From Candidatus Kapaibacterium sp. (GTDB lineage: Bacteria > Bacteroidota > Ignavibacteria > Kapaibacteriales > JAEUSM01), in the NCBI GenBank assembly GCA_016788785.1, contig JAEUSM010000013.1, forward strand, positions 56,771 through 120,770: a stretch of DNA of 64,000 nt. The letters run 5' to 3'. Below the pieces are notes generated by a model. That model was not told the DNA's origin, did not search any database, and was given only the letters and a program-made list of their open reading frames with translations. Below, piece by piece: positions 5,170 to 53,300 of this stretch. Numbering within the stretch: position 1 is the first letter of the stretch; every line of letters starts with the position of its first letter. The position numbers and the translations under genes were made by a program.

Positions 5170-5295
5170 CAATTTCCTCCAAAGGAGGGGAATTTGACCG
5201 ATAAACTGTAGAAACAAGGCATGCCCTGTCCCTACAAAAACACGATAACACCCTCGCCCCTATGGGGAGAGGGATGGGGAGAGGGGTCATTTACA
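5170..5295. repeat. GC-rich mosaic hairpin array 1, comprising a short CCTCC-AAA-GGAGG hairpin, a degenerate 30-bp palindrome and the 'CCCTCGCCCC-N-GGGGAGAGGG-TGGGGAGAGGGG' module
   Basis: The span 5251-5290 'ccctcgcccctatggggagagggatggggagaggggtcat' recurs at 13863, 16005 (reverse complement), 32938, 34806 and 53013 (reverse complement). The span 5206-5240 is a degenerate copy of the perfect palindrome at 34973. Local GC is far above the flanking AT-rich DNA. Confidence 0.8.
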
Positions 5296-5303
5296 ATGAT
5301 ACC

Positions 5304-5867
5304 TTACATCTTTATAATAGCTTGTTTGATTTTTTTGATTAGTCTGGTGTGTTGTTTGCGGACTGAGAGAATGTTCTTATTGAGAGAAACTGCTACTTCC
5401 TGAAGTCTCATTCCGTGATCATAATACAGCTGAATTAACTGTTGATCTTTGACTGTGAAGGTACGAACAATTTCGTTGATTTTTTCCTGTGTATCAGAAA
5501 TTTCTTTTGAATCTAACTGATCATCAGTATGTACAAATTCATCAAATTCTACAGAAGCAGATAGTGGATTTTTTACTGATTCTTTATATTTATTCTTACA
5601 CAGCTTTTGACAGATACCACAAAGAAAGGAATAGAAGTTATTCACTTCCATTCCTTTCTTTAGTTTCACAATCAACACAATAAGACCTTCTTGATAAATA
5701 TCCTGAATATCCTCACTACATTTCAACTTTGTTTTAAGAAAAGAATGTAAACGATGCTTGTATCTACGCTCTAATTCCTTTGTTGCATTTTCTCGTTCGT
5801 ACGTTGTATCGCTTTGTAAAAAGCGACACAACATCGAGTCAGGTAATTCAGAATATTCTTTGTTCAT
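5304..5867 (-). CDS. sigma-70 family RNA polymerase sigma factor (ECF-like)
   Basis: This 187-aa protein has a sigma region 2-like segment ('DIQDIYQEGLIVLIVKL') and a region 4 HTH ('LQEVAVSLNKNILSVRKQHTRLIKKI'). Its size is typical of ECF sigma factors. Confidence 0.7.
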   Translation of the reverse strand: MNKEYSELPDSMLCRFLQSDTTYERENATKELERRYKHRLHSFLKTKLKCSEDIQDIYQEGLIVLIVKLKKGMEVNNFYSFLCGICQKLCKNKYKESVKNPLSASVEFDEFVHTDDQLDSKEISDTQEKINEIVRTFTVKDQQLIQLYYDHGMRLQEVAVSLNKNILSVRKQHTRLIKKIKQAIIKM

Positions 5868-5908
5868 AAAATCTTGTGAAAAAAAAGAATCATCATCATT
5901 TCAAATTC

Positions 5909-6607
5909 CTAACAATCATCACCACATGGAACTAAATTACCTCTTCGCCAATCCCTAAATTGATTCTGTAAAGTACAAGAACCAATTCTTTTTCGATTTA
6001 TCTCTTTAATTTTAATATTTTTACCAAAGAAAGGACTTGAAGAACTAGATAAACATATTGTATAAGTTCTTTCACAACAAGTTCTTCCACATTCATGCCA
6101 TCTGTAATGATCTACCCACCAATCACCATCTTTAAAGTAATGTGGCATTGGAGGAGAAAAACCGGAATCGCAAATAACTGTTGTAGGATTTACTTTATAG
6201 CTACATTTTACCCATACTCCACACATCGCAGTATAAAATTGAACCGTTATTAATGAATCAACTGAACAATTAGGTATAGTTGAGCTATCTTTAGTAATCT
6301 TTCTCATTAAACCTAATTCTAATAAATTTCTAAATGTACTAAAGTCATAATGATAAATTCTAAAGGTATCTAAAAAATTTCCATTTTCTATTGCTATAGC
6401 AGAATCAATAATAAATCTAACTACTCCATTGCAATTTTGTACTCTGTAGAAAACTAAACCAGAAACATCACTAAAGTATGTAAGTTTAATGGTGTCTGCA
6501 TGTGAAGTCCATGTAGTACAAGAATCATCAGGTGGACATGTTTGAGATAATAAACTTAAATTACAAATCCCTGCTAAGCAGAATATAACAATTACTAAAT
6601 ATTTCAT
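5909..6607 (-). CDS. secreted cysteine-rich protein, paralogue B (unknown family)
   Basis: It has a signal peptide 'MKYLVIVIFCLAGICNLSLLSQ' and about 16 Cys residues. It is a clear paralogue of the 8705..9442 protein, sharing the motifs 'CNG..F..DSA', 'YH..FS.FR.L', 'NC..S..T......A.CGVWV.C.Y', 'CDSGF..P.P.Y', 'CG..CCE.TYT.C' and 'CTLQNQFRD.R......C.D.C'. Confidence 0.6.
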   Translation of the reverse strand: MKYLVIVIFCLAGICNLSLLSQTCPPDDSCTTWTSHADTIKLTYFSDVSGLVFYRVQNCNGVVRFIIDSAIAIENGNFLDTFRIYHYDFSTFRNLLELGLMRKITKDSSTIPNCSVDSLITVQFYTAMCGVWVKCSYKVNPTTVICDSGFSPPMPHYFKDGDWWVDHYRWHECGRTCCERTYTICLSSSSSPFFGKNIKIKEINRKRIGSCTLQNQFRDWRRGNLVPCGDDC

Positions 6608-6623
6608 ATTATTCTTCCTGATT

Positions 6624-7205
6624 TCAAAATGTTTGTATATTTCTTATAATTGTTTGATTATTTTTGGTCATAATCAAATAATAATTTCTATATTTAATGT
6701 TTTGGATATTAATGCTTAACTTATTTTCTCCTTGATGAATAAATGCATCACCAAGTTTAATACAATTTTTTTCTAACAAATGTAATAAATAAAAACTTGC
6801 GTTACTTTCAACTTTACTAGTACATTCAACTTCAAGTATATTAGTAATTTCATTGAAATTAACTGACAAAATTGTGTTCGAAGAATTATTTATGCTTTTT
6901 AGATGTAATGGTGATTTATTTGTCCAAGTATATTTATCTACCGAAAAAAGCGAACTTCCATCTAAAAACGAAGCATCAATTTGAATAGACTGTTCAATTG
7001 TACCATGTAAAGATAATTTTCCATCTTTTTTTGATAATTTCCATCTTTCAAAACCAAGTTTATTGTATTTTTCTCCATTTAATAATTCAAATTCAAACTG
7101 CTTAAAATTTTTAGTTAAAGAACTTTGAGATTGAATAGTATTTTGTGCCTGAACTATTAATGCAGAAAAAATACAGCAAAAAACAAATGTTAAAGTAGTT
7201 TTCAT
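6624..7205 (-). CDS. secreted hypothetical protein
   Basis: The 193-aa protein begins with an N-terminal signal peptide 'MKTTLTFVFCCIFSALIVQAQ'. It lies between the two Cys-rich paralogue genes in the same orientation with short gaps. Confidence 0.55.
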   Translation of the reverse strand: MKTTLTFVFCCIFSALIVQAQNTIQSQSSLTKNFKQFEFELLNGEKYNKLGFERWKLSKKDGKLSLHGTIEQSIQIDASFLDGSSLFSVDKYTWTNKSPLHLKSINNSSNTILSVNFNEITNILEVECTSKVESNASFYLLHLLEKNCIKLGDAFIHQGENKLSINIQNIKYRNYYLIMTKNNQTIIRNIQTF

Positions 7206-7230
7206 ATAAACCTTATATAAATCATGATTT

Positions 7231-8715
7231 TCAATTAAGAATTATAAATTGTTTTGTGTATTGCTCTTTTCCAATAGTAAGGACTGCTTGATATGTACCT
7301 GAAGGAAATTCGATAACATCAATTGGAATTACTATTTTGCCAGTTGCTTGTTCAATTCTCATTGTTTTATGTGTAACACCTGAAACATCGACTATTGAGA
7401 GTGATGCTCCATTCAGAAAACCATAGTAATGTATCGAAAGTGTTACATTCTCTTGAACGCTTGGAATAGGATATACTTCCATTTGAATTGGTTTTTCATT
7501 TGATTTTCTCGAATCAACTGAAGATACTATTTTTGGATTTGTATAAATCAATAAAGCAAGAGGGTTTGCAAAATAAATAGTATCACCAATGTAAGCAATA
7601 TCTGTAATTGTAAAAGGATGATCAAAAAAACCACCATACCTTAATAATTTGTATCTGCTATCAATACTATCACGGGTATAAAACGTTATTTGTTCTTTTT
7701 TTGGTTTATTTTCATCAATTGTAAAAAAACCAAAATCTGTTCCACACATTTTTAATCCATTTTCTCGATTTAGTAAAATGTTATGAACTCCTAACGTAGC
7801 AGGGTATCTGTTTTTCATAAATAAACGTCCTGCTATTCCATCTGCAGAATCCCATTTCGTAATTATTCCCTCTGGTGTTATTTTATAAACACCATTATAA
7901 ACTCCTCTTATAGAATAACTATCACCGCTATTAGAAGTAAACCACATATTATTATTACCATCAAATGCCATTGATGATATTCTTCTATAAATACCGTCTA
8001 AAGAAAAAGGAATATCTGTAAAGTCAATTTTTCCATTTGAAAATGTCATTAGATTATTTATACCAGAAGCAATAATACAGACTATTGAATTATCATCTCT
8101 CTTCGCCATTGCTTGAATAGCTCCATTATCAAACCGAGGATCATAAGCAAATTTATAAATTACTTCAAATGATACTTCTTGCTTACTTGTAAATAATTTT
8201 AATAATTCATTATTAGTACTATCGTAAACAACATACTCTGTACCATTGATTGTCTCACGAAATCGTTCAAATCCAATTAAAACACTAACAAACATGTCGT
8301 TATTATTGTCAAAGCAAAAATCTCGGAATTGTCTTGTTGGCAATAAATCTGCAGGTATAGGTACTGAGTCCCATTGACCTTGTTCATATTTCCAAAGATT
8401 ATTTCTTCCGAATGTCCATATGACACCATAGTTGTCAAAATGAACTTTTGAGTTGACATTTAAACCTAAATCAATACCTTCTGTTATATTTATAAAAACC
8501 GTGTCAGCATTGGTTTTTAAATAAACTGACAAAACTCCAGTTGTTTGAAGATCTTTACCCATAATTAATACCTTATCTTGAAATGTATCTATTACCTTAG
8601 GAGCTAAGCCATCTTTGAATAAATCATCTGTTTGAGAATAAATTAAAGTATTCAAAAGAAAAAAAATTGAAATTTTAAAAGAATAAGAGAATAAATGTTT
8701 CATATTAGCAACCAT
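7231..8715 (-). CDS. secreted protein with T9SS C-terminal sorting domain (possible beta-propeller-like body)
   Basis: The 494-aa protein has a hydrophobic N-terminal signal ('ISIFFLLNTLIYSQ'). Its C-terminal ~80 aa ('LSIVDVSGVTHKTMRIEQATGKIVIPIDVIEFPSGTYQAVLTIGKEQYTKQFIILN') resemble the Por secretion tail. The 3' end overlaps the next gene by 11 nt. Confidence 0.65.
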   Translation of the reverse strand: MVANMKHLFSYSFKISIFFLLNTLIYSQTDDLFKDGLAPKVIDTFQDKVLIMGKDLQTTGVLSVYLKTNADTVFINITEGIDLGLNVNSKVHFDNYGVIWTFGRNNLWKYEQGQWDSVPIPADLLPTRQFRDFCFDNNNDMFVSVLIGFERFRETINGTEYVVYDSTNNELLKLFTSKQEVSFEVIYKFAYDPRFDNGAIQAMAKRDDNSIVCIIASGINNLMTFSNGKIDFTDIPFSLDGIYRRISSMAFDGNNNMWFTSNSGDSYSIRGVYNGVYKITPEGIITKWDSADGIAGRLFMKNRYPATLGVHNILLNRENGLKMCGTDFGFFTIDENKPKKEQITFYTRDSIDSRYKLLRYGGFFDHPFTITDIAYIGDTIYFANPLALLIYTNPKIVSSVDSRKSNEKPIQMEVYPIPSVQENVTLSIHYYGFLNGASLSIVDVSGVTHKTMRIEQATGKIVIPIDVIEFPSGTYQAVLTIGKEQYTKQFIILN

Positions 8716-9442
8716 CCTGACATTGAATTAATTGATTAGTTCTACCGTCGCGAAACTGATTTTGTAACGTACAATTTGGAGTTTCTTGATGCCGTTGTTT
8801 TTGAATTTGTTTAACAAAAGTAATTGGTTCTAGACCTGTAAAATTGTTTTTTACACAAACAGTATAAGTTTTTTCACAACAAATCTCTCCACAAGATTCA
8901 TATTTCAATATATCTACATATTTAATTCCATTAAAAGTATAATCTGGAAATGGAGCAGCAAAACCACTATCACACATCCTACTATTTGTATCGATCTCGT
9001 ATCTACATCGTACCCATACGCCACATGCAGCTGAATATATTTTTGTAATTGTATTACTATCTGGACAATTTGGCATATTCATAATACCAATACTTTCTTC
9101 AACTATATATAAATCTATTAAGTCTCTAAAAGCTGAAAAATTATGATGGTAAATCATCAAAGAATCTAAGAATTTTGAATTATCAAACATTACCGCACTA
9201 TCTAACAAAAACTCCCATCGACCATTACATATCCTTGCTCTATAATATATAATACCATTAAGGCCAATGGTAGTATCTTGATCAAAATTATCTATTTGTA
9301 TGTTTTCTACTTGTTCCCACCATTGAGAAGTGTCACAAGGGAAATCACATCCTGTAGATTGTGCTTTTATAGATATAGTAGAAAGTACAAAGAGGCAAAT
9401 TATTACAATCCAAGGTACTTTCAAATAAAAACGTTTTTTCAT
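8705..9442 (-). CDS. secreted cysteine-rich protein, paralogue A (unknown family)
   Basis: The 245-aa protein has a signal peptide ('IVIICLFVLSTISIKAQS'). Its Cys framework is conserved with the 5909..6607 protein, and the two C-termini are nearly identical ('CTLQNQFRDGRTNQLIQCQDGC' versus 'CTLQNQFRDWRRGNLVPCGDDC'). Confidence 0.6.
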   Translation of the reverse strand: MKKRFYLKVPWIVIICLFVLSTISIKAQSTGCDFPCDTSQWWEQVENIQIDNFDQDTTIGLNGIIYYRARICNGRWEFLLDSAVMFDNSKFLDSLMIYHHNFSAFRDLIDLYIVEESIGIMNMPNCPDSNTITKIYSAACGVWVRCRYEIDTNSRMCDSGFAAPFPDYTFNGIKYVDILKYESCGEICCEKTYTVCVKNNFTGLEPITFVKQIQKQRHQETPNCTLQNQFRDGRTNQLIQCQDGC

Positions 9443-9465
9443 TTATACATCCTTTATAAAATAGA

Positions 9466-10149
9466 TTATTTGCTCATGATGGTTATTGGAATTAGAGACT
9501 TTTTGAGATAGGTTGAGCCAGAATACTGTAATTCAACAGTACCAATATAATTACCCTTAGATTTTGTTATTACTTCAATTTGCACTAAGGAAGTGTTATT
9601 TGCTTTGATGGTTTTTCCGCCAAAGAAATGAAGCTTTGCTTCACATCCATTGAGGGTAATAGATTCAGAGCTAATCGTAATGTCCTTGTTGCTTTCGTTC
9701 ACGAGCATTACCTCTGAAAATACCGTTGTACCACTATCAGCGATAATATACGGAAATTTTTCTGGTTCGACGATTATCTCCCGCATTACTATCCCTTGCA
9801 AATACATCGAGGCAGTAGATCGCATGGGATCATTGGAGACAAAATCCACCCTGCTTGCACGTTCACCAGTATATTTACTCACATCAAATTTCAATTCAAT
9901 TTGTACTGAATCTTGTGGTATAATGGTTTTATTCGTAAGAGGAACGAAGGTACATCCACACGATGCAGAAATATCCGATATCTCCAATTCTGCATTTCCA
10001 TTATTATAGACTGTAACTGGAACTATATGAACCGTCGGTGCAATTTTTCCCAAAAACAACACACTATCCACAGACAGATGTAATTTGGGTTGTGATACTA
10101 AACAACAGAATGTTGTGAGAAAAATTACTGTAAATATAACCGTTTTCAT
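9466..10149 (-). CDS. DUF1573-domain secreted protein
   Basis: It has a signal peptide ('MKTVIFTVIFLTTFCCLVSQ') and the hallmark DUF1573 motif 'ISASCGCT' that is common in Bacteroidota and Chlorobi. It is the first gene of the minus-strand secreted-protein operon. Confidence 0.7.
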   Translation of the reverse strand: MKTVIFTVIFLTTFCCLVSQPKLHLSVDSVLFLGKIAPTVHIVPVTVYNNGNAELEISDISASCGCTFVPLTNKTIIPQDSVQIELKFDVSKYTGERASRVDFVSNDPMRSTASMYLQGIVMREIIVEPEKFPYIIADSGTTVFSEVMLVNESNKDITISSESITLNGCEAKLHFFGGKTIKANNTSLVQIEVITKSKGNYIGTVELQYSGSTYLKKSLIPITIMSK

Positions 10150-10436
10150 TAGCGAAGCAAGAGTGTAAAAAGAATGATAAGTAGGTCTCTTTATTGGTAA
10201 GTGTCATTTTTTAGCAAAAAAGTGACATTTGAAGAAAAAATATTTCATTTTTCTGTATTTTGTTGAATATGTTGACCACACAAAACTATCAAAAATCAAT
10301 TCTATATCGTAATAACAATTGAAAAAAATAAAAATCCCAACTATTTTCAAATTTTGTTTGAAAGTGTGGGATTATGGGTTATGTTATTTTTGATATTTTT
10401 TCGATTTCGTGAAATTGGATTTTTTTTGATTCAGAA

Positions 10437-10610
10437 TGCCCCCTCACCCCAGCCCTCACCCTCGTAGGGGAGAGGGAGTTGATTTTTGGTGGAAAGTTGT
10501 TCTATAAATATGTGACCACTCCGTGTCAAGAGAAGCCACCCCGCCACACTTCGACTTCGCTCAGTGACCAGTGGCACCCCTCCTAATTTAGGAGGGGAGT
10601 TTGACCCCAC
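10437..10610. repeat. GC-rich mosaic hairpin array 2
   Basis: The span 10437-10488 'cccctcaccccagccctcaccctcgtaggggagagggag' matches module A-prime at 34726 and the reverse complement at 53146. The span 10535-10581 'gccaccccgccacacttcgacttcgctcagtgaccagtggcacccc' matches module D, with reverse-complement copies at 32882 and 34914 and a variant at 53246. The span 10575-10597 holds the perfect hairpin 'cccctcctaatttaggagggg'. Confidence 0.8.
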
Positions 10611-10627
10611 TAATTTGAATTTACTTC

Positions 10628-12994
10628 CTAAAACTCTACTCTTACTCCACCAATTGGGAATACGCCTAATTGGTATGCAGTAGAGACATTGTCGTTGCGA
10701 GGGCTATATAAACGGAATGATACATTTTGTGTGTTGAGCATATTTTCAACGGAAACAAAGCTGATGAGTGACCAACCGTTGAAATTTTGGCGGAAATCTA
10801 TTCGTCCGTCGAACCTTGAGAAATTTGGGTTGCGTTCGGTATTCACCAAATTGTTATTCAAACGTGTGGCATTGAAGGCACGAGATTGTTCCAAATCTAC
10901 TGGTGTATATGGTGCTCCACCAGCAACGGTGAATTTTCCGGAAAACTCGATAGAAAATGTTTCGTCAATTTTCCATTCATACCCTGCAAGTAAATTACCA
11001 ATAAATTGATTATCAAATGCTCCCCATCTCCAAACACCATCAGAGCCAGTAAATTCTTGGCGTACTATTGAACCAGTTGCAGTTATATAATACCCATCTG
11101 AGAAGTTTTTTTGGAATGTAAGTTCAGCACCATACGTACGACCTTTCCCACCATTGAAATAGGTGTCTTCTATTGCAATGGAACCGAATTGAGCACCTGC
11201 ATTTAAAAATGATACGCCATTAATTTGGTTTTTCATTACAGGAGCATTAGAATAGTCTTTATAATATCCTTCCACTTTAACAAGCATATCAGATGCTAAT
11301 TGAACAGAGTACCCAGTTACATAATGAATTGCTTGGGTAAAATCTAATTGAGCATTGTCTTGGGTGGCAAAATACATTTGCAACGATTGAGATTGACGAT
11401 ATATTCCCGTTCCAAAACTGAAGTTTTGTCCCTCAAATGGCGACCAATTAAGGGAAAAACGAGGTTCAACTGACCATTTTTTCGAAATATCCAGATACTG
11501 AGTATGAACACCTGTATTGATTCTCAAATTATCAGTGATTCGCCAATTCCAATTCACATAGTTCAGTGATTGAAAAGCGGTACCTTCATTGCCAATTTTC
11601 GAAATTGGTTGTGTCCCAATATAAAAGAATGGATAGGTAAAACGTTCAATCGCAATATCAAAATATCGGTAACGACCTTCGATTCCAGCTGAAAACACAT
11701 TCGAAGCGTCTGGTGCCCAAACGTATCGTAATTTTGCAGTATGGTATCCTTCAGTAGAGTTGTTTTTCAACCAAGGATCTATGGAAGTAACATTTTCTTT
11801 TGAAGTCGCGGTGATGGAATCCACTTGTACAAAATACTTGTTGTAAACCGTTCCAACAGTAAGAATAGCATACGAACGTTCTGTCAGAAGTCGTTGCCAA
11901 TTTACTGCAGTTACGAAAATATCTGTTCCATTGATGATATTTTGATCACCGGTGAAAACTGTGTCGACAGTTGTTTGATCGATATTGATATTACTTGTTC
12001 CATACAAAGTAGTAATGGAAATTTTATCGTCTTTTGAAGGAGCCAAATCAACCTTTGCAGAAAAATCTTGAAATTCTGGTACACCTGCCCAACCAAAATT
12101 AATGCCCATTGCTTTGAGTAATCCCAAATACGAGTATCGATAATTCGCCATAAACGAACCATTCAATGCTTTAAGAGGTCCTTCTATACCTAATTCAAGA
12201 CCATTAAAACCAAATTGACCAATGTATTCAAATTTTTCTTCGTTTCCTTTACGTGTTCTCAAATCGAACACACCAGAAAGTCTGTCTCCATATTCCGAAG
12301 GAAATGAGCCTGTTAAAAAGTCACTATTTGCTAACAAGTTAATGTTGATAGCAGAAATTGGTCCACCAGTTGCACCTTGTGTCGCAAAGTGATTTGGATT
12401 TGGAATATCCAAACCGTCTAATCTCCACAATAACTCCGTAGGTGAACCGCCACGAATGATGATATCATTACGCTGGTCAGAAGCACCCAAAACACCTGCA
12501 AAGTTTTGAGCCATACGAGCTGGATCTCCACGTGAACCTGCGAATCTATACGCATCATCAACCGTAAATACATTCGAACTAACTATAGCAGCTTCATTTA
12601 TTGCTTTGAATTGCGAACGAGCATCGTCTACGACAACTTCCTCAATTTTCACAATTTTTTCCAAAAGTTCTATACTGACGACCAATTCCTTGCCTGATGT
12701 TACAACAATTTGGGAAGAATATGGTTCAAACCCTACACCAGTCGCCATCAAAACATAGCGACCTGTAGGAACATTTTTGATGCGGAAATCACCATTGGCA
12801 GTACTAATAGCACCATTTTTTGTATCCACAATTCCGACACGAATACCTTTCAACGGTTGCTTAGTACTACTTGAAACCACAGTCCCTCGCACTATTTGTG
12901 TAGGAGTTTTTTCTTCTTGAGCAGAAGAAGTTTGGAAATCACAAAAAAAGAGCAATCCCAATAGAACAACAAGTAAAAAACGATACGTTTTCAT
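10628..12994 (-). CDS. TonB-dependent receptor with N-terminal carboxypeptidase-regulatory-like domain
   Basis: The 788-aa protein has a signal peptide followed by a CarbopepD_reg-like segment ('IVRGTVVSSSTKQPLKGIRVGIVDTKNGAISTANGDFRIKNVPTGRYVLMA'). A plug region and a long beta-barrel follow, ending in the aromatic C-terminus '...GGVRVEF'. Confidence 0.85.
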   Translation of the reverse strand: MKTYRFLLVVLLGLLFFCDFQTSSAQEEKTPTQIVRGTVVSSSTKQPLKGIRVGIVDTKNGAISTANGDFRIKNVPTGRYVLMATGVGFEPYSSQIVVTSGKELVVSIELLEKIVKIEEVVVDDARSQFKAINEAAIVSSNVFTVDDAYRFAGSRGDPARMAQNFAGVLGASDQRNDIIIRGGSPTELLWRLDGLDIPNPNHFATQGATGGPISAININLLANSDFLTGSFPSEYGDRLSGVFDLRTRKGNEEKFEYIGQFGFNGLELGIEGPLKALNGSFMANYRYSYLGLLKAMGINFGWAGVPEFQDFSAKVDLAPSKDDKISITTLYGTSNINIDQTTVDTVFTGDQNIINGTDIFVTAVNWQRLLTERSYAILTVGTVYNKYFVQVDSITATSKENVTSIDPWLKNNSTEGYHTAKLRYVWAPDASNVFSAGIEGRYRYFDIAIERFTYPFFYIGTQPISKIGNEGTAFQSLNYVNWNWRITDNLRINTGVHTQYLDISKKWSVEPRFSLNWSPFEGQNFSFGTGIYRQSQSLQMYFATQDNAQLDFTQAIHYVTGYSVQLASDMLVKVEGYYKDYSNAPVMKNQINGVSFLNAGAQFGSIAIEDTYFNGGKGRTYGAELTFQKNFSDGYYITATGSIVRQEFTGSDGVWRWGAFDNQFIGNLLAGYEWKIDETFSIEFSGKFTVAGGAPYTPVDLEQSRAFNATRLNNNLVNTERNPNFSRFDGRIDFRQNFNGWSLISFVSVENMLNTQNVSFRLYSPRNDNVSTAYQLGVFPIGGVRVEF

Positions 12995-13655: not shown

Positions 13656-13749
13656 TGAATACCACTCACTTACTAAACACTGTTTAGTGTATGAACGTAC
13701 ATTATTTTTGATTATTGTTGTAAGGTGAATTTTTTTTTAAAATTTAGAT

Positions 13750-13905
13750 TCCACCCTTGTGTAGCGGAGTCATCATCGCAAACCGTAGAGACGCAAAATT
13801 TTGCGTCTCTACAAAAAGTACATCCAATACTCTTCCAAAGGAGGAAATCAAAAAAAAACATCTCCCTCGCCCCTTTGGGGAGAGGGTCGGGGAGAGGGGT
13901 TTCTC
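13750..13905. repeat. GC-rich mosaic hairpin array 3
   Basis: The span 13785-13811 is the perfect palindrome 'tagagacgcaaaattttgcgtctcta' (module C). The span 13830-13850 reads 'ctcttccaaaggaggaaatc', and 13863-13900 is module A ('ccctcgcccctttggggagagggtcggggagaggggt'). The array lies between the TetR gene start and the 3' end of adenylate cyclase gene 2. Confidence 0.8.
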
Positions 13906-13924
13906 TGCATTAAAAGTATTTAAC

Positions 13925-15898: not shown

Positions 15899-15929
15899 AG
15901 TTTTGTTGGAAGGTTGTATTGGTTTTTTG

Positions 15930-16245
15930 TCGTACGAATATACGAAAATAAGGGCATTCAGCCACTATCTAAAGATAGTGGAAATTCAAAACATTAGAAC
16001 ATGTACCCCCTCTCCCCGTACCCTCTCCCCAAAGGGGCGAGGGAGTTATCGTGTTTTTTGTAGTGACGCACAATTTGCATCTCTGAAGAAACCACCCCGA
16101 CCTTCGGTCACCCTTCCAAAGGAGGGGAATAGACCAACAACCCACAATTTCCAACATAGGGCTTACACTCTATGCAGTGATAGTACGCCCCTTCAGGGCT
16201 TGACCTCTCTGATTTTTGAGACGCCCATATAGGGCGTCTCTACGA
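15930..16245. repeat. GC-rich mosaic hairpin array 4, in the divergent intergenic region between adenylate cyclase 2 and nnr
   Basis: Module B 'gccactatctaaagatagtgg' is at 15961-15981 and module A (reverse complement) at 16005-16045. A degenerate module C is at 16058-16090, followed by 'ccttccaaaggaggggaa' and module G 'gccccttcagggcttgacc' at 16194-16214. The module C palindrome 'gagacgcccatatagggcgtctc' sits at 16217-16241. The first ~130 bp are collinear with array 7 (52950-53100). Confidence 0.8.
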
Positions 16246-16302
16246 TTGCATTGTTATGATTGAATATATGGAATAAATAATACCCATATTCTTTGTGCGT
16301 TT

Positions 16303-34689: not shown

Positions 34690-34720
34690 GGGGCGAAAGA
34701 AATTTCGCCCCTTTTTTTTA
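34690..34720 (+). terminator. intrinsic terminator (second copy of module F)
   Basis: The sequence 'ggggcgaaagaaatttcgcccctttttttt' begins 29 nt after the stop of 33117..34661. Confidence 0.8.
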
Positions 34721-35005: not shown

Positions 35006-35030
35006 CCAAACGAAAGTTAGTAGGCTTTTT

Positions 35031-42455: not shown

Positions 42456-43772
42456 GTGTGTCGTAATTTTTTCTATTCTTTTTTTCATTTTCGAATGGGC
42501 GATACTTTTTCACAGTTTGTTAAGACATTTTCCTCAAAAGTTGATGAACAAGAAAAAATATCCTACATTGTTTCTATAACAAATAATCAAGATGATTTTT
42601 CACCATCCGGTGAATTGGAAATGTCTATTTGTAAATTTTATCTCAATAACACAAAACAGTTTTCACCTTCACTCGAACATCTCAAATTTTTACTTCGAAT
42701 TGCTAACATTTATTATCATTACAAACAGTTTAATGATAGTTTCACATTGTTGAAGAAAATTGAAAATCTTGCTAAAAAAAATTCTTTGCAAGAGATTGTA
42801 AATCTATCGTATTCTCTTCATGCCTTGCTTGCAATTGAACGAGGAGATTATCCTTTTGCTTTGCAATCTATGTTACAGTCAAAACCGATAATTGAAGCGA
42901 GTAATAATCCTTTGCGAATTTCTACTCTTAATAACAGTTTGGGAGTTATCTACTATCATTTGGGTGATCTCAATCAAGCGTTAGAGTATTATAAGCAATC
43001 TCTTTACAATAAGGAGGAACAAAACTATTCCTCTCAAGATTGCATCACCTTGATGAATATTGCTACAATATATATTCAACAATCTGATTTAAACTGTGCA
43101 AAAGATTATGCACTAAAATCACTTTCTGTTGCAGAAAAATTAGATATTGGCAATCTAATAGCGTTGACAAAGAACAAACTTTCTACTATTGTATCGCTTC
43201 AAAAAGACTTTCAATTAGGTCTTCAATTAGCCAATGATACGATAACATATTACGAAAAAAATGGACCACTGTTAGATTTATCTTTTTCATATATTCTTCG
43301 TGCAGACATTACTCGTGAATTGAAGGCACCATTAGAGGCACTTTCTGATTTGAATAAAGCTTTGGATATTGCATTACAATTGAACAATCTTAATTTAGAA
43401 GGTTCCATTATGCGATCTATGGCAATGGTGTTTTTAAATGATTTACAAAAATTTGAATCCGCTTTACGATACATTCAACGGTATTACGAGATTTACAAAG
43501 ATTCTGAGTTCAAAGAACATTGGTTGCAATCTCATTTTTTGTATGCGTTGTATTATTCAAAATCTCAACAACCAAAAAAAGCACTTCAATTTATTTCCAT
43601 TGCATTAGAAGATAAAGATATCGATCAATGGATTTCTTGTAAAATTGATTTTTTAGAGTTAAAATTGCAACTGAATCATTTTTTGTCTTTAAGTGAACGC
43701 AAAAAAACTGAAGAAGTTTTGACGCAAAGTAAAGAAATCTACAAAAATTCGTATAAACCACAAACAATCTAA
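42456..43772 (+). CDS. TPR-repeat protein
   Basis: There are multiple TPR-like units ('LNNSLGVIYYHLGDLNQALEYYKQSL', 'LMNIATIYIQQSDLNCAKDYALKSL'). The start is uncertain because several in-frame ATGs occur. Confidence 0.5.
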   Translation: MCRNFFYSFFHFRMGDTFSQFVKTFSSKVDEQEKISYIVSITNNQDDFSPSGELEMSICKFYLNNTKQFSPSLEHLKFLLRIANIYYHYKQFNDSFTLLKKIENLAKKNSLQEIVNLSYSLHALLAIERGDYPFALQSMLQSKPIIEASNNPLRISTLNNSLGVIYYHLGDLNQALEYYKQSLYNKEEQNYSSQDCITLMNIATIYIQQSDLNCAKDYALKSLSVAEKLDIGNLIALTKNKLSTIVSLQKDFQLGLQLANDTITYYEKNGPLLDLSFSYILRADITRELKAPLEALSDLNKALDIALQLNNLNLEGSIMRSMAMVFLNDLQKFESALRYIQRYYEIYKDSEFKEHWLQSHFLYALYYSKSQQPKKALQFISIALEDKDIDQWISCKIDFLELKLQLNHFLSLSERKKTEEVLTQSKEIYKNSYKPQTI

Positions 43773-48823: not shown

Positions 48824-48842
48824 TAAAATTATAGCAAAGGAA

Positions 48843-50855: not shown

Positions 50856-50934
50856 ACATAACATTTCTATAAACGGCTGAGGTTCTCGAAGCCATTGTAA
50901 TTATAACGGTGGTTTCGAGTGCCTCAACCACCCT

Positions 50935-52974
50935 TTACTTCCCCTTTTCCAACCAAAAGGTATTCATTGTTCCTTTGCCTTTTATGGAAATTTCTCCTCT
51001 GGGTATGAGTGAGAATTCTGGGTATGATTCGATTGATTTTGCAAATTGTTCGCTGATGTGGATACGACCAGCTTCTGAGTTAGATTCCATACGTGAGGCT
51101 ACGTTTACTGCATCTCCCCAGAGGTCATAGGTGTATTTGTTTTTGCCGATGATACCTGCAACGACTTCACCTGTGTGGATTCCAATGCGAATTTCGATAT
51201 CGTTCATATCCTTTATCCAATTGGTATCACCCAAATCTGATGGAATATTGACGACAAAGTCTCGCATTGTTATGAGAAGTTGGAGTGCAGCTTGGGCAGT
51301 TGCTTTTTGGTGATTTTCGAGGGGAGTTGTTACATTGCCTACTGCCAAATACCCATCACCAATGGTTTTGATTTTTTCTAAACCGAATGTTTCAACCACT
51401 TCATCCGCTTTTTGGAAGATAGCGTCAAGAAGATAAACAATTTGCTTTGGTGGTGCAATCGAGGCAAGTGACGTAAACCCAACCAAATCCATAAAAAGAA
51501 CAGAAGCAGTTTCAAAGTGGTCGGCAATAGGATTTTCGCCCTTTACTAAGCGATCAGTTACAGAATCAGGAAGTATATTTCGAAGAATACTTTCACGTTC
51601 TTCGTATCTTGCTCTTTCAACAGCTATTTGTTTTTCACGTTCAGCTGTTTTACGTTCATTGTCAAATCGATCTGCTTGTTTTTTTGCTTCGATGGATTGA
51701 ATTTCTTTTTCGAGTGCTATAGATTTAGTTTGAAATTCTAAAGCTTCTTTATAATGTTCTTCGTTTAGTCTAAGCTTATGTAATTGTTCATAAGCTTCTT
51801 TTCTTACAACTTTTGCACCTATTTCCTCAGCTAAAACTAACGATTTTTGAAGATACACTTCTGCTTTTTTTACATCATAGTATGTTGATTCTTTGGTTGC
51901 ATAAACAGACCCAATATTCCCAAGGTTACTTGCAATACCGACTTTATTCCCAATTTCTTCATTGATGTGAAATGCTTTTGAGTAATACTCTATAGCTTTG
52001 GGGTAGTCCGAAAGACTCTTGTAAACAATCCCAATATTCCCAAGGTTTATTGCAATCCCAACTTTGTTTCCAATTTCTTCATTGATATGTAATGCTTTTG
52101 TATAATACTCTAATGCTTTGGGGTAGTCTGAAAGATTCCAGTAAACAATCCCAATATTCATAAGGTTAGTTGCAATTCCAACTTTATTCCCAATTTCTTC
52201 AAAAATAGGTAATGCTTTTGAGTAATACTCTAATGCTTTTGGGTAGTCCGATAGATTAGAATAAACATTCCCAATACTCACAAGGTTACTTACAATTCCT
52301 AATTTGTTTCCAATTTCTTCAAAAATAAGTAATGCTTTTGAATAATACTCTAATGCTTTGGGGTAGTCCGAAAGATCTGAGTAAACAAGCCCAATATTCC
52401 CAAGGTTAGCTGCATTACCATATTTACTTCCAATTTCTTCACCGATGTGTAATGCTTTTGAGTAATACTCTAATGCTTTGGGGTAGTCCGAAAGATAATT
52501 ATAAACATTCCCAATATTCCCAAGGTTACTTGCAATACCAACCTTGTTTCCAATTTCTTCTAATATGAGTAATGCTTTTGAATAATACTCTAATGCTTTG
52601 GGGTAGTCCGAAAGATCTGAGTAAACAAGCCCAATATTCCCAAGGACACTAGCAATACCTCTTTTGTTTTCAATTTCTTCAGAGATAAGCAATGACTTTG
52701 AAAGATACTCTAATGCTTTGGGGTAGTCCGAAAGATTCCAGTAAACAATCCCAAGTGAATTATAGACCTCTGCAAGAGATTTGGCATCGTCTTGGATTGC
52801 TTGTTGTTCCAAGAGTTCGTAAGCAAATACCTTTGCTTCTTGATTTTGAGAAGTTCTCCAAAGATTATCTAATTTTTCTTTTGCTTGTTGTATTTCTTCG
52901 GGTGTCATTACGGTTTTGGAAGGTTGCATTGGATTTTGTCGTACGAATATACAAAAATAACGACATTCAGCCAC
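50935..52974 (-). CDS. TPR-repeat class III adenylate cyclase (paralogue 3)
   Basis: The 679-aa protein has a catalytic domain almost identical to that of 13925..15898 ('ILPDSVTDRLVKGENPIADHFETASVLFMDLVGFT...IKTIGDGYLAV...RIGIHTGEVVAGIIGKNKYTYDLWGDAVNVASRMES'). It contains about seven near-identical 40-aa TPR units. Confidence 0.85.
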   Translation of the reverse strand: MAECRYFCIFVRQNPMQPSKTVMTPEEIQQAKEKLDNLWRTSQNQEAKVFAYELLEQQAIQDDAKSLAEVYNSLGIVYWNLSDYPKALEYLSKSLLISEEIENKRGIASVLGNIGLVYSDLSDYPKALEYYSKALLILEEIGNKVGIASNLGNIGNVYNYLSDYPKALEYYSKALHIGEEIGSKYGNAANLGNIGLVYSDLSDYPKALEYYSKALLIFEEIGNKLGIVSNLVSIGNVYSNLSDYPKALEYYSKALPIFEEIGNKVGIATNLMNIGIVYWNLSDYPKALEYYTKALHINEEIGNKVGIAINLGNIGIVYKSLSDYPKAIEYYSKAFHINEEIGNKVGIASNLGNIGSVYATKESTYYDVKKAEVYLQKSLVLAEEIGAKVVRKEAYEQLHKLRLNEEHYKEALEFQTKSIALEKEIQSIEAKKQADRFDNERKTAEREKQIAVERARYEERESILRNILPDSVTDRLVKGENPIADHFETASVLFMDLVGFTSLASIAPPKQIVYLLDAIFQKADEVVETFGLEKIKTIGDGYLAVGNVTTPLENHQKATAQAALQLLITMRDFVVNIPSDLGDTNWIKDMNDIEIRIGIHTGEVVAGIIGKNKYTYDLWGDAVNVASRMESNSEAGRIHISEQFAKSIESYPEFSLIPRGEISIKGKGTMNTFWLEKGK
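51895..52765 (-). repeat. about seven tandem copies of a 120-bp (40-codon) repeat inside the adenylate cyclase 3 coding sequence
   Basis: The 120-bp unit 'caatttcttc...aatgcttttgagtaatactctaatgctttggggtagtccgaaagat...gtaaacaa.cccaatattcccaaggtta.ttgcaat.cc.a.tttgtttc' recurs with roughly 85-95% identity. Each copy encodes one 'NLGNIG.VY.(N/D)LSDYPKALEYYSKAL' unit. Confidence 0.85.
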
Positions 52975-53300
52975 TATCTAAAGATAGTGGCACTTCGTAT
53001 ATGGAAATTTGTCCCCCCTCTCCCCGTACCCTCTCCCCAAAGGGGCGAGGGAGTTGTTTTGTTCTTGTAGAGACGCACGGACGTGCGTCTCTGAAGATTC
53101 CACCCCGCCATTTAATGGCACCCCTCAAGAGGGGAACCCAAAGATATCTCCCTCTCCCCTTGAGGGAGAGGGTTGGGGTGAGGGGTCATTCTGAATCAAT
53201 GGGCAGACTCGTAGGTCTGCCCCTATAAAATTTCAAAAAAGTTCGACCTCGCCACATTACGACTACGCTCAGTGACCATGGCAGTCCTTAAGAGGGGAAC
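52950..53300. repeat. GC-rich mosaic hairpin array 7
   Basis: Module B 'gccactatctaaagatagtggc' is at 52970-52991 and module A (reverse complement) at 53013-53053. Module C 'gagacgcacggacgtgcgtctc' is at 53070-53091 and the hairpin 'gccatttaatggc' at 53107-53119. Module E 'cccctcaagagggg' is at 53122-53135 and module A-prime (reverse complement) at 53146-53190. The hairpin 'gggcagactcgtaggtctgccc' is at 53200-53222, module D at 53246-53283 and module E 'ccttaagagggg' at 53286-53297. Confidence 0.8.

Follow-up and report, generated by a model that had tools for sequence, protein, structure and literature searches.

Hairpin arrays in the intergenic regions of the window

The window, a 64-kb stretch of 35% GC DNA, carries a cluster of GC-rich hairpin modules in each of its seven intergenic gaps of at least 259 nt, and none in its gaps of 124–237 nt. 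All seven regions (5170–5295, 10437–10610, 13750–13905, 15930–16245, 32738–33024, 34690–35005 and 52950–53300; arrays 1 to 7) contained the module sequences quoted for them in a first-pass annotation. GC-rich islands (24-nt windows of at least 66% GC) were confined almost wholly to these regions, and 18 of the 19 perfect GC-rich hairpins with stems of at least 7 bp were intergenic, 16 in arrays and two, terminator-like, elsewhere; the remaining one lies inside a cyclase gene. The strict pattern of module A matched five times in the window (at most three mismatches; 0.00 expected from shuffles), and CCACCCCG, part of the unit formed by D, E and H, also five times (0.23 expected), always inside arrays. 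The description of the arrays as a real, non-random, REP-like hairpin set in mosaic order was upheld. When folded as DNA, modules C, B, F and one REP+G hairpin reached z values of −6 to −9, while folding was weaker for D (about −3), the A hairpin (only about −1.6) and the second G composite (−0.7). Tandem genes flank five of the arrays, divergent genes one and convergent genes one, so that the earlier placement of most arrays in divergent or 5′ regulatory regions was inaccurate.

Instead of the nine independent modules first proposed, there are about four repeat families together with one terminator and one palindrome specific to the paralogues. The four families are BoxC/PIT/TM_ECO, GTAG-tagged REP palindromes, a ‘CCACCCC’ double-hairpin unit (D, E and H together; the D unit) and an Acido-Lenti-1-like two-hairpin unit. 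The features are as follows (a dot marks those given without strand).

5170–5295 (.): array 1, between an AraC-family gene (4101–5045, −) and a sigma-70 gene (5304–5867, −)
5176–5199 (+): D-type remnant, stem-2 hairpin CCTCCAAAGGAGGGGAA then TTTGACC (direct reading)
5207–5236 (.): GTAG-tagged REP palindrome, imperfect C variant TGTAGAAACAAGGCATGCCCTGTCCCTACA; repeat family D17
5251–5287 (+): BoxC/TM_ECO, joined to the preceding REP by linker CTACAAAAACACGATAAC; 33 of 36 nt as in an E. coli K-12 copy
5295–10625 (.): window-specific gene segment, sigma-70 gene to DUF1573 operon, bounded by arrays 1 (left) and 2; absent from relatives L251 and L305
10440–10480 (−): BoxC/TM_ECO (A′), array 2; sequence match to K-12 copies
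10535–10606 (+): D unit, long: CCACCCCG, extended hairpin 1, CCCCTCCTAA-TTT-TTAGGAGGGG, then TTTGACC
13739–16274 (.): window-specific segment, array 3, cyclase paralogue and array 4; absent from L251 and L305
13785–13812 (.): GTAG-tagged REP palindrome GTAGAGACGCAAAATTTTGCGTCTCTAC, array 3; folding z = −8.7
13830–13849 (+): D-type stem-2 remnant CTCTTCCAAAGGAGGAAATC, between REP and BoxC (direct reading)
13864–13900 (+): BoxC/TM_ECO, array 3; breakpoint of the cyclase segment about 10 nt or less from its 3′ end
15961–15982 (.): palindrome B, CCACTATC TAAA GATAGTGG; in the duplicated cyclase upstream region, not dispersed; family D11
16006–16046 (−): BoxC/TM_ECO, array 4
16060–16084 (+): degenerate GTAG-tagged REP GTAGTGACGCACAATTTGCATCTCT; on the − strand, conserved linker to the adjacent BoxC (direct reading)
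16092–16135 (+): D unit, short: CCACCCCG ACC TTCG GGTC ACCCTTCC AAA GGAGGGGAA
16155–16206 (+): two-hairpin unit with G; Acido-Lenti-1 near-match, 33.8 bits against a gathering score of 37
16218–16243 (−): GTAG-tagged REP GTAGAGACGCCCTATATGGGCGTCTC; same REP twice in relative L252
32683–35019 (.): window-specific segment, array 5, T9SS-tail gene and array 6; absent from relatives L429 and L430
32738–32767 (+): F, intrinsic terminator of the flotillin gene; direct repeat with 34689–34720; family D16
32783–32833 (+): REP hairpin, CTAC linker and G hairpin; Acido-Lenti-1-like, 29.4 bits
32860–32926 (−): D unit, long; 96% identical to 34894–34960; family D10
32938–32977 (+): degenerate BoxC/TM_ECO
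34689–34720 (+): F, intrinsic terminator of the T9SS-tail gene (33117–34661)
34726–34764 (−): BoxC/TM_ECO; inverted pair with 34806–34843
34806–34843 (+): BoxC/TM_ECO; 35 of 36 nt as in E. coli K-12 copy no. 21
34858–34880 (−): GTAG-tagged REP (GTAG GGGCGTA TTGC TTACGCCC)
34894–34960 (−): D unit, long
34973–35002 (.): GTAG-tagged REP palindrome TGTAGAGACAGGGCATGCCCTGTCTCTACA; folding z = −8.5
52969–52992 (.): palindrome B, paralogous copy, array 7
53014–53054 (−): BoxC/TM_ECO, array 7
53067–53092 (+): GTAG-tagged REP GTAGAGACGCACGGACGTGCGTCTCT
53100–53136 (+): D unit, short (GCCAT TTA ATGGC)
53150–53186 (+): BoxC/TM_ECO
53201–53226 (−): REP-type hairpin GGGCAGAC..GTCTGCCC with variant tag CTAT; same hairpin with CTAC in relatives L251 and L303
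53244–53301 (+): degenerate long-form D unit (direct reading)

Identification of the repeat families

Module A′ was rejected as a separate module, being the reverse complement of A; the two are one element on two strands, with nine copies in the window (five on + and four on −). Judged by sequence, this element is the BoxC/PIT/TM_ECO triplex motif of E. coli: all nine copies share 31–35 of 35–36 nt with E. coli K-12 copies, six of the nine fit the published TM_ECO pattern exactly, and one window copy used as query gave 62,132 matches, all unannotated, in 5,390 of 5,426 E. coli genomes. Outside this lineage, the strict A pattern turned up in 34 stretches of viral contigs and at least 120 of genomes, the latter from Alpha-, Beta- and Gammaproteobacteria, Planctomycetota, Acidobacteriota, Chloroflexota, Nitrospirae and others. 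BoxC is near-identical across these phyla, including a conserved mismatch (CCCTCGCCCC versus GGGGAGAGGG), in hosts of 35% to 74% GC. The linker CTACAAAAACACGATAAC joins a REP to BoxC in four window copies and in three copies of relatives, and a REP adjoined BoxC in 9 of 121 metagenome matches.

Module C and five other hairpins of the window share a GTAG/CTAC tag. Most hairpins other than A and D, in the window and in relatives, start with GTAG or end with CTAC, the background for such a tag being 1.2% per 8-nt window. The GTAG tag is the defining mark of the REP superfamily (PMC3733652, PMC2817692), and PMC3733652, citing primary studies, states that REP DNA is cut by a RAYT at the GTAG motif. 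By this mark, the C-type hairpins are classed as GTAG-tagged REP-type palindromes. The C palindrome also occurred in 93 viral-contig stretches (36–69% GC) and on plasmids of Nostocales (cyanobacteria).

Modules D, E and H were likewise rejected as separate modules, as they are parts of one unit consisting of CCACCCCG, a variable covarying hairpin and then CCCCTCC-loop-GGAGGGGAA. The window holds six copies in long and short forms and two remnants with stem 2 only, and a further 83 copies were found in 48 viral-contig stretches of 34% to 67% GC. The flanks are invariant. Stem 1 shows all four Watson–Crick pair types, with a covariation score of 0.252 (shuffles, 0.094; slid controls, 0.081 at most), and is nearly without G–U pairs, the most variable pair having 2 in 69. 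No published description of this unit was found in the literature.

Module G is the second hairpin of the two-hairpin unit, which scored 33.8 and 29.4 bits against Rfam Acido-Lenti-1; in the Rfam scan of the modules no family reached its gathering score. Module F is a duplicated intrinsic terminator, its two copies (94% identical) lying in sense just 3′ of two genes. Palindrome B was discarded as an independent module: it is confined to two paralogous cyclase upstream regions within a segmental duplication (13925–16058 and 50935–53066).

Each of the four families is also present outside this lineage. The modules are not restricted to the window but recur in relatives and, taken one family at a time, in many other taxa. 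Nor does the module set differ from every described family, as had been claimed: most of the repeats are of families described before in E. coli and other bacteria. A/A′, the commonest module, is a described element (PMC4666352), an outcome that the first-pass annotation itself had set against its claim, and the C type carries the GTAG tag of the REP superfamily.

Array turnover and gene content among relatives

Array content at orthologous sites differed module by module among close relatives, with turnover in the AraC|TonB, TetR|nnr and flotillin|YjbR gaps. The AraC|TonB gap holds only a terminator-like hairpin and no modules in L305, REP, G, C, A and REP in L251, and two arrays with a 5.3-kb cassette in the window. 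In the flotillin|YjbR gap, L429 has 57 nt without modules, L430 has 250 nt that include F, D and a truncated A, and the window has 2.3 kb that include a gene. At nnr, the promoter-proximal sequence is kept in relatives and the array upstream is reshuffled. In relatives at 60% Nnr identity, 12 kb of sequence was free of modules.

Breaks in synteny lie inside arrays, and two are no more than about 10 nt from a BoxC element. Of the four gene-content differences seen, three have arrays as their boundaries, and relatives without the cassettes carry arrays at the same sites; the fourth is a TPR gene (42456–43772) that L430 lacks, and its junctions are free of arrays. Since long intergenic regions tolerate both repeats and breakpoints, this association (n=4) may be passive. 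The loci compared yielded neither target-site duplications nor clean empty/filled pairs for a single module.

A RAYT or other mobilising enzyme, proposed earlier as a candidate, did not emerge: Pfam analysis of all ORFs of at least 100 aa in the 64-kb window gave no transposase, RAYT or integrase, nor did the genes called in relatives’ loci totalling about 100 kb, and no recurrent transposase family stood beside BoxC in 154 loci from other taxa. The BoxC literature likewise has no linked transposase.

Proposed origin and role of the arrays

We consider it probable that the arrays are BIME-like clusters in which unrelated selfish small-repeat families have accumulated in the same intergenic regions of an uncultured Kapabacteria genome, marking recombination-prone junctions rather than acting as gene-specific regulators. 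The modules would behave as selfish or near-neutral elements at the DNA level. They may spread in trans, those of the GTAG type as single-stranded hairpin DNA handled by an HUH/Y1 (RAYT-like) transposase; modules might be homogenised through gene conversion and land preferentially beside existing hairpins. The arrays would then serve as recombination-prone junctions for the gain and loss of gene cassettes, and any effect on transcription of neighbouring genes would be incidental. In E. coli, rearrangement between strains is more frequent at TM_ECO loci than at control sites (PMC4666352). Against a selfish nature we count the near-identity of BoxC across phyla, which could reflect a conserved function.

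This near-identity, mismatch included and at 35% to 74% GC, also speaks for a less likely explanation, that the modules are DNA structural sites serving the host and kept by selection, forming hairpins, cruciforms or intrastrand triplexes that would help to organise the chromosome or set its topology, make replication or transcription pause, or offer preferred sites where gene cassettes integrate and excise. BIMEs of E. coli are bound by gyrase, IHF and Pol I. The D arms are invariant, and on direct reading the G-strand of D fits purine-motif triad rules like BoxC, its arms GGAGGGG and GGGGTGG being mirror repeats with T opposite A. The arrays at three of the four cassette differences, and their persistence in cassette-less relatives, fit such sites, as do the in vitro triplex formation of TM_ECO and its association with rearrangement (PMC4666352). 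However, neither the content nor even the presence of arrays is conserved at orthologous sites (no modules at L429 flotillin|YjbR or L305 AraC|TonB), the relatives at 60% Nnr identity lack modules in the 12 kb, BoxC varies from 1 to 29 copies per E. coli strain (PMC4666352), and in the published tests summarised there PIT elements acted neither as promoters nor as terminators and did not block polymerase in vivo.

A role at the RNA level, as terminators, insulators, 3′-end mRNA stabilisers or small RNAs, was suggested by the first-pass annotation and appears more doubtful still. All modules are intergenic with stable folds, the F copies and a hairpin at 32990 look like terminators and have the same orientation as the upstream genes, the REP+G unit is similar to Acido-Lenti-1, a candidate sRNA in Rfam, and, according to published abstracts, E. 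coli REPs can influence 3′ UTR stability and termination. Neither A (18 sense, 16 antisense) nor D (15 sense, 17 antisense) shows a strand bias in tandem gene contexts, however, and four of the six window D copies are antisense to local genes; the run that follows C-type palindromes consists of A rather than T, and the scarcity of G–U pairs in D stem 1, the sub-threshold Rfam scores and the reshuffling upstream of a conserved nnr promoter-proximal sequence all count against RNA function. With orientation unbiased and array content not conserved at orthologous gaps, no regulatory role, such as the proposed insulation or mRNA stability function, was borne out. An artefact, either chance low-complexity sequence or metagenome mis-assembly joining repeats, is highly improbable. 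Short-read assemblies of the same organism do break inside arrays (Logan contig L001 begins at window position 16220, within a REP hairpin, and L253 within a BoxC element), but shuffles expect essentially no matches, independent ENA, JGI and Logan assemblies have the same arrays and gene orders, and the modules are present in complete E. coli genomes and many isolate genomes; an artefact is already contradicted.

Comparison with known systems

BoxC/PIT/TM_ECO (Bergler 1992 and Hoyne-Maher 2000, as cited in Holder et al. 2015, PMC4666352) shares with A/A′ both sequence and architecture (10-nt C-arm, 3-nt loop, G-arm, 2–3-nt loop, mirror G-arm), including the frequent ‘mm’ mismatch form CCCTCGCCCC. 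Both are intergenic, on both strands, with some inverted pairs (34726/34806 here), without a linked transposase and sited at rearranged loci. The host differs, being an AT-rich Bacteroidota (Kapabacteria) MAG here, whereas the 2015 survey gives TM_ECO only in 262 proteobacterial genomes; moreover, about half of the window copies are fused via the conserved linker to a GTAG-tagged REP, and they are embedded in multi-family arrays.

The closest system for the C type is that of the GTAG REPs, REPINs and RAYTs (Nunvar 2010, PMC2817692; Bertels & Rainey 2011, PMC3116915; Di Nocera 2013, PMC3733652). Common to both are palindromes of about 20–30 nt with 7–13-bp stems, short loops and a GTAG head or CTAC tail, stem variation from copy to copy, and an extragenic, clustered distribution polymorphic among relatives. 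In contrast, the 2013 survey reports only CGTC types, not GTAG REPs, for Bacteroidetes; in several window copies the tag belongs to the palindrome, which then has GTAG and CTAC as its two ends; a RAYT gene was not found in the sequence available here; and regular inverted doublets, as in REPINs, are not the dominant arrangement in the window. Acido-Lenti-1 (RF01687; Weinberg 2010, PMC2864571) and the G unit share a 46-nt layout (8-bp hairpin, 12-nt linker, 5-bp hairpin with a UUC-type loop), and the alignment of each window copy spans the whole model, at scores (33.8 and 29.4 bits) under the gathering score of 37. That RNA is known from Acidobacteria and Lentisphaerae, and its first hairpin is here CTAC-tagged and behaves as one more array module.

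As far as mentioned in PMC3733652, the BIMEs of enterobacteria and the mosaic arrays of Neisseria resemble the window in having several short motifs in variable order and orientation that inflate particular intergenic regions. Loci from other taxa fetched by the pattern of one family, unlike the window, essentially lacked the other families. The small dispersed repeats (SDR) of heterocyst-forming cyanobacteria (Elhai et al. 2008) are reportedly tiny palindromes that insert beside or into each other in AT-rich genomes, a likeness that serves as a lead only, with the C palindrome present on Nostocales plasmids. Classical BIMEs contain one REP type in alternating opposite orientations with defined linkers, whereas here BoxC, REP, D and Acido-Lenti-1-like units are interleaved.

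Intergenic hairpin arrays of the window

The first-pass annotation had described nine hairpin or palindrome modules (A, A′ and B to H), clustered in seven intergenic arrays: arrays 1–7, at 5170–5295, 10437–10610, 13750–13905, 15930–16245, 32738–33024, 34690–35005 and 52950–53300. On reading of the seven regions, all of the quoted sequences were present, and they were non-random compared with shuffles; the arrays are real and were carefully observed. The GC content of the window is approximately 35%, and 24-nt windows of at least 66% GC were confined almost wholly to the seven array-bearing regions. With up to three mismatches allowed, the strict module A pattern gave five matches in the window, compared with 0.00 expected from dinucleotide shuffles, while CCACCCCG, the 5′ end of module D, gave five matches, all within arrays, compared with 0.23 expected. 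The window has 19 perfect GC-rich hairpins whose stem reaches 7 bp or more; 18 are intergenic, and the remaining one is located within a cyclase gene.

Folding of the modules, a check proposed with the annotation and carried out here on single-stranded DNA, gave strong z scores for C, B, F and one REP+G hairpin (−6 to −9) and a score of about −3 for D, but weak scores for the A hairpin (only about −1.6) and a second G composite (about −0.7). The weak score of the A hairpin reflects the fact that shuffles of A form similar stems from composition alone. Based on the ORF list of the window, all seven intergenic gaps of at least 259 nt bear an array, and none of the gaps of 124–237 nt does. The placement proposed earlier, mostly in divergent or 5′ regulatory regions, does not hold: five of the seven arrays lie between tandem genes, one (array 4) between divergent genes and one (array 6) between convergent genes.

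The nine modules are real repeats but represent fewer families: A′ is A on the opposite strand, D, E and H form one unit, B belongs to a duplicated region and F is a terminator. The array finding is mostly explained by known kinds of element. A search of the whole window against Rfam gave zero matches at gathering scores, and a permissive search of the window and five D-rich loci gave only sub-threshold matches to Acido-Lenti-1 and noise. A full-length but weak match to AaHKsRNA41 at 58747–58924 on the − strand (34.5 bits against a gathering score of 97, E = 3e-4) is probably noise, seemingly driven mainly by the terminator hairpin located 3′ of the gene at 58799–59413.

Identity of module A with the BoxC element

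The first-pass annotation recognized no described repeat family among the modules and named a match to one as evidence against its proposal; such a match was found for the commonest module. Judged by its sequence, module A is the E. coli element variously termed BoxC, PIT and TM_ECO. In E. coli K-12, 23 copies have been listed, and TM_ECO was equated with the ‘BoxC’ repeat of the 1990s and the ‘PIT’ of the Maher group (Holder 2015, PMC4666352). The window contains nine copies in total, five on the + strand and four on the − strand, all nine being intergenic within the 64 kb, and more copies were detected in three relatives (L251, L252 and L305). The published TM_ECO pattern, CCCTCNCCC N3–6 GGGNGAGGG N3 GGGNGAGGG (Holder 2015, PMC4666352), was exact in six of the nine window copies, and the remaining three differed by loop length or by one or two bases. 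When compared with the K-12 copies (Table 1 of PMC4666352), all nine were identical at 31–35 of 35–36 nt, with a single-base difference between the copy at 34806 and K-12 copy no. 21. BLASTN of 34795–34850 against complete E. coli genomes gave 62,132 matches in 5,390 of 5,426 genomes, with a median of 13 per genome and a best match of 93% over 44 nt, none of which was annotated. The strict BoxC pattern was also found in 34 stretches of the viral collection, with a GC content of 52–74% throughout, and in at least 120 genome stretches, which included, among the matches listed, Alpha-, Beta- and Gammaproteobacteria, Planctomycetota, Acidobacteriota, Anaerolineae, Nitrospirae, Victivallales and others.

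Knowledge of BoxC in E. coli dates back to 1992; the function of the element and its means of spread have not been established, and earlier work detected neither promoter nor terminator activity (PMC4666352). TM_ECO was always intergenic, without strand bias and without linked mobility genes, and inverted pairs were frequent; it forms a triplex in vitro and is associated with strain-to-strain rearrangement (PMC4666352). The BoxC arms of the window obey the triad rules on direct reading, and folding with ViennaRNA models the hairpin alone. A G-quadruplex reading, possible on direct reading of the four G runs, was set aside, the published CD and NMR data being in favour of the triplex.

GTAG-tagged hairpins and their fusion to BoxC

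Module C groups with five other hairpins having a GTAG head or a CTAC tail, and on sequence grounds the C-type hairpins are GTAG-tagged REP-type palindromes. CTAC at 16218, 32783 and 34858 means that the tag reads GTAG on the − strand.

Tagged hairpins of the window
5207, GTAG at one end and CTAC at the other
13785, GTAG at one end and CTAC at the other
34973, GTAG at one end and CTAC at the other
16060, GTAG only
53067, GTAG only
16218, CTAC (GTAG on the − strand)
32783, CTAC (GTAG on the − strand)
34858, CTAC (GTAG on the − strand)
53201, variant tag CTAT

The chance background of GTAG is 1.2% per 8-nt window, and the tag was also detected on hairpins of four relatives (L251, L252, L303 and L305). 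The REP hairpins of the window, at a density of approximately 9 per 64 kb, are all intergenic, with a stem of 7–13 bp and a loop of 4–6 nt, in agreement with the shape of the REP superfamily (extragenic palindromes of 20–40 bp with a stem of 6–13 bp). This superfamily is defined by the terminal GTAG (Nunvar 2010, PMC2817692; Di Nocera 2013, PMC3733652), a tag linked to RAYT (REP-associated tyrosine transposase) enzymes, which cleave at it (PMC2817692, PMC3733652). In the 2013 survey, GTAG REPs were found in Proteobacteria, Cyanobacteria, Chloroflexi and the PVC group, and the REPs of Bacteroidetes were CGTC-tagged only (PMC3733652). The C palindrome, GTAGAGACGC-N8-GCGTCTCTAC, was present in 93 stretches of the viral collection (GC 36–69%) and in plasmids of Calothrix, Kovacikia, Halotia and Nostoc; no mosaic array was found within 24 kb on a Calothrix plasmid that carries it. 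A full-text literature search for C sequence strings returned unrelated eukaryotic or primer matches only.

Module G is the second hairpin of a two-hairpin REP+G unit. Against the Rfam model RF01687 (Acido-Lenti-1), this unit aligned over the full model length with 33.8 bits at 16155–16200 and 29.4 bits at 32783–32828; both scores are below the gathering score of 37, and the unit resembles Acido-Lenti-1 without being a member. A pattern scan of viral contigs for G gave no match.

In four window copies and three copies of relatives, the REP hairpin is joined to BoxC by the linker CTACAAAAACACGATAAC(T) in one relative orientation, with the REP stem differing among the copies. A metagenome scan for CTACAA-N6–28-BoxC detected at least 120 stretches, most of which are probably chance adjacencies. 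Nine of the 121 matches listed nevertheless have a perfect hairpin (6 bp or longer) that terminates precisely at CTAC, indicating that the REP–BoxC adjacency exists elsewhere. In the loci of other taxa fetched by the A, C or D pattern (1.27, 0.82 and 0.44 Mb, respectively), the other two families were essentially absent, and the interleaving of all families looks like a feature of the lineage of the window.

The D unit

Modules D, E and H constitute a single unit, consisting of CCACCCCG, hairpin 1, (C)ACCCCTC(C), a loop of 3–4 nt and GGAGGGGAA.

D units of the window
10535, long form
32860, long form
34894, long form
53244, degenerate long form
16092, short form
53100, short form
5176, remnant with stem 2 only
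13830, remnant with stem 2 only

Using the generalized pattern CCACCCCG N8–38 ACCCCTC N2–5 GAGGGGAA, we detected 83 copies in 48 stretches of the viral collection (GC 34–67%), some single and others in inverted dimers, with no more than five per 10 kb. When 69 distinct copies were aligned, no variation was seen in the flanks or stem 2; stem 1 is fully variable yet still paired. Pair 14–26 of stem 1 was CG in 22 copies, GC in 18, AU in 16 and UA in 10, giving a covariation score of 0.252 compared with 0.094 for shuffles and at most 0.081 for slid controls. G–U pairs were nearly absent from stem 1, and pair 12–28 was non-standard in 23 of the 69 copies, with T opposite C in the aligned rows. Direct reading of the G-rich strand gives a C-arm (CCCCTCC), a G-arm (GGAGGGG), a hairpin and a second G-arm (GGGGTGG). 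As mirror repeats of each other with T opposite A, the two G-arms conform to the rules for purine-motif triads, and we infer that D is built like BoxC except that its second loop contains a hairpin. The CCACCCC repeats around hairpin 1 were considered as a target-site duplication and rejected, because the second copy mirrors the C-arm and is not a direct repeat.

No Rfam match to D was obtained, D-rich loci included, and a full-text literature search for D sequence strings returned unrelated eukaryotic or primer matches only. The D unit, which is widespread, is apparently uncatalogued. The exact 34-nt pattern of the long form gave zero matches in the genome and metagenome collections, and this form seems specific to the Kapabacteria lineage of the window. 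BLASTN with the D consensus gave no match in the phage collection and one marginal match among plasmids. One D-rich prophage-like locus encodes a capsid protein nearest to those of Clostridia/Bacillota phages, with 38% identity. In five phage-like contigs (L282, which is IMG/VR 3300028602_000293, L259, L266, L295 and L300), D units lie between structural genes, often as inverted dimers 15–70 nt apart, and those of L282 are nested in a larger repeat containing TTAAGAG. In the relative L430, a unit at 11446–11485, CCCCTCAG-[GTCC TTCG GAC]-AGCTCCCC-TTTGAA-GGGGAGC, has the topology of D (arm, small hairpin, C-arm, loop, G-arm) with other arm sequences, a hint that the recurring feature is the architecture and not the sequence.

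Modules B and F

Module B was found in the upstream regions of two of three paralogous TPR-adenylate/guanylate-cyclase genes, and module F directly 3′ of two other genes.

Cyclase genes and F terminators of the window
177–2531, TPR-adenylate/guanylate-cyclase gene
13925–15898, paralogous cyclase gene
50935–52974, paralogous cyclase gene
32738–32759 and T8, F intrinsic terminator after the flotillin gene (31323–32678)
34689–34712 and T8, F intrinsic terminator after the T9SS-tail gene

The cyclase genes at 13925–15898 and 50935–52974 share 120-nt periodic repeats (TPR units), and their upstream regions, 15925–16058 and 52934–53066, are 91–92% identical, indicating a recent segmental duplication of 13925–16058 and 50935–53066. 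The copy at 13925–15898 is absent from L251 and L305. The palindrome B, CCACTATC TAAA GATAGTGG, was found at 15961–15982 and 52969–52992 in these two upstream regions only, and is thus not a dispersed module. It is AT-richer than the other modules, was not found elsewhere in the fetched sequence and, in both paralogues, precedes the likely start codon by approximately 63 nt; it is a candidate operator or 5′-UTR hairpin. The second paralogue was called with a GTG start at 52974, which overlaps B and probably lies too far upstream; homology places the start near 52907.

F is a pair of 94% identical hairpins, each followed by T8. The two hairpins have the features of an intrinsic terminator, namely, a GC-rich hairpin and a T run, in sense orientation, just downstream of a gene.

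Array turnover and gene cassettes in relatives

The flanking proteins are typical of Bacteroidota (T9SS sorting tail, CarboxypepD_reg TonB-type receptor and DUF1573), and the flotillin of the window (31323–32678) shares 100% identity with an NCBI protein entered as ‘MAG: flotillin [Candidatus Kapabacteria bacterium]’. Homologues of Nnr, encoded by a gene flanking an array, showed 99, 90, 86, 81, 73, 71 and 60% identity, and then less than 40%. Orthologous regions from six relatives were compared, with synteny determined by BLASTN. In this comparison, which the earlier annotation had suggested, the presence of modules differed at orthologous intergenic sites. The AraC–TonB gap of L305 is 185 nt long with a single terminator-like hairpin only, that of L251 is 267 nt long with REP, G, a C variant, BoxC and REP, and that of the window holds two arrays and a cassette. 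Similarly, the flotillin–YjbR gap is 57 nt in L429, with a bidirectional terminator only, 250 nt in L430, with an F-like terminator, two D-type units and a truncated BoxC, and 2.3 kb in the window. The short D of L430 (GCCAT GTA ATGAC) lies exactly at the site of the long D of the window, indicating the replacement of hairpin 1 in place with conservation of the flanks. No modules were found in 12 kb of the relatives at 60% Nnr identity.

Three window-specific segments have array borders.

Window-specific segments bordered by arrays
5295–10625, sigma-70 to DUF1573 operon, between arrays 1 and 2
13739–16274, cyclase paralogue with arrays 3 and 4
32683–35019, T9SS-tail gene with arrays 5 and 6

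Array borders were thus found for three of four gene-content differences, a small and uncontrolled sample, and two synteny breakpoints lie within approximately 10 nt 3′ of a BoxC element. The T9SS-tail gene is flanked by direct repeats of F (32738–32772 and 34690–34724, 94% identical, spacing 1952) and of long D (32860–32926 and 34894–34960, 96% identical, spacing 2034), an arrangement compatible with recombinational integration as well as with the original intergenic region having been duplicated. As a counter-example, the TPR-repeat gene at 42456–43772 is present in the window and L429 and absent from L430, with arrays at neither junction.

In the window-specific DUF1573 cassette, four consecutive ORFs spanning 5909–9442 (232, 193, 494 and 245 aa) had no Pfam match at E ≤ 1e-5. 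Upstream of nnr, two relatives with 71–73% Nnr identity carry a small phage-like or gene-transfer-agent-like cluster with a large terminase and several unannotated ORFs (L252, 2503–8588; L303, 2763–8890); at that site, the window and L251 have TetR and a TonB-type receptor. Short-read assemblies from the organism itself or from related ones break within arrays: the Logan contig L001 (SRR12144710; 16,683 nt) starts at 16220, inside a REP hairpin, and is expected to end near 32902, inside the long D, and L253 (Logan SRR35796757) starts inside a BoxC element. Such breaks could be caused by the palindromes, or by the two D copies in the window, alone.

Possible routes of spread

RAYT, the Y1/HUH transposase gene cognate to GTAG REPs, is typically flanked by REPs (PMC2817692, PMC3733652). 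A search for it, suggested with the annotation, found no transposase in the 64-kb window, and neither a transposase nor RAYT was found among the called genes of the relatives’ loci. The GGGGWSAS motif of ‘TIRYT’ inverted repeats (PMC3733652) prompted a search for Y1/HUH transposases near BoxC; none recurred in 154 loci of other taxa (2,555 ORFs clustered), where the ORF families were generic (ABC transporters, acyl-CoA dehydrogenases and gene-transfer-agent/prophage genes).

In tandem contexts, orientation was unbiased, with 15 sense and 17 antisense copies of D and 18 and 16 of A, respectively, based on crude ORF calls. The modules are of multiple families, widespread, polymorphic at orthologous sites, unbiased in orientation and associated with cassette junctions. 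A DNA structure that serves the host and a regulator acting at the RNA level are less likely readings; both agree poorly with the absence of conservation at orthologous sites and of strand bias. As elements that spread, the GTAG-type hairpins would be moved by an HUH/Y1 enzyme encoded elsewhere in the genome, and BoxC and D would also spread, possibly by hitch-hiking as REP–BoxC composites. Copies could then be homogenized by gene conversion, and arrays may grow as hairpins attract more insertions; ectopic recombination at the arrays would be promoted, or at least tolerated, so that cassettes are added or removed. A broader reading, in which BoxC and the ‘CCACCCC’ double-hairpin unit D, an undescribed repeat family of phage-derived and other contigs with 34–67% GC, share a C-arm, a G-arm and a mirror third arm that obeys the triad rules (in D with a freely covarying hairpin in the second loop) and form a class of triplex-type mobile DNA elements with common recognition or mobilization machinery, and in which the BoxC–REP fusion points to a RAYT-like enzyme, appears to us unlikely as a whole.

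Significance and comparison with known systems

Three points of interest remain: that BoxC is nearly identical over such a range of phyla, that it is fused to GTAG REPs in this lineage, and that the D unit appears undescribed. A near-identical 36-nt BoxC occurs in a Bacteroidota genome and, according to the scans, across many phyla; near-identity at such distance needs horizontal mobility or a shared constraint. BoxC is repeatedly fused to a GTAG REP, and it lies at junctions whose gene cassettes differ between relatives with 81–98% flanking-protein identity. The AT-rich background of this lineage makes the BoxC copies stand out and easy to find, and the lineage offers a concrete system for asking whether a RAYT-type enzyme moves BoxC and whether arrays promote the gain and loss of cassettes. 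Recognition of the D unit, a small repeat with clear stem covariation, by gene callers and RNA-motif searches would avoid mis-annotation.

A BIME in the strict sense has one REP type, regular spacing, alternating orientation and defined linker motifs. In the arrays, the families are interleaved with irregular order and orientation, and only the REP–linker–BoxC pairing is regular. On reading of the arrays and orthologous alignments, we saw no array-wide terminal inverted repeats or target-site duplications of the kind that characterize a MITE, a 70–300-bp unit bounded by terminal inverted repeats and accompanied by target-site duplications. The 2015 survey detected TM_ECO in 262 genomes, all proteobacterial (PMC4666352). 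In contrast to this restriction to Proteobacteria, BoxC was found here in a Bacteroidota host of 35% GC and over a wider range of phyla, which extends the picture of TM_ECO and leaves the identity of the element unchanged.
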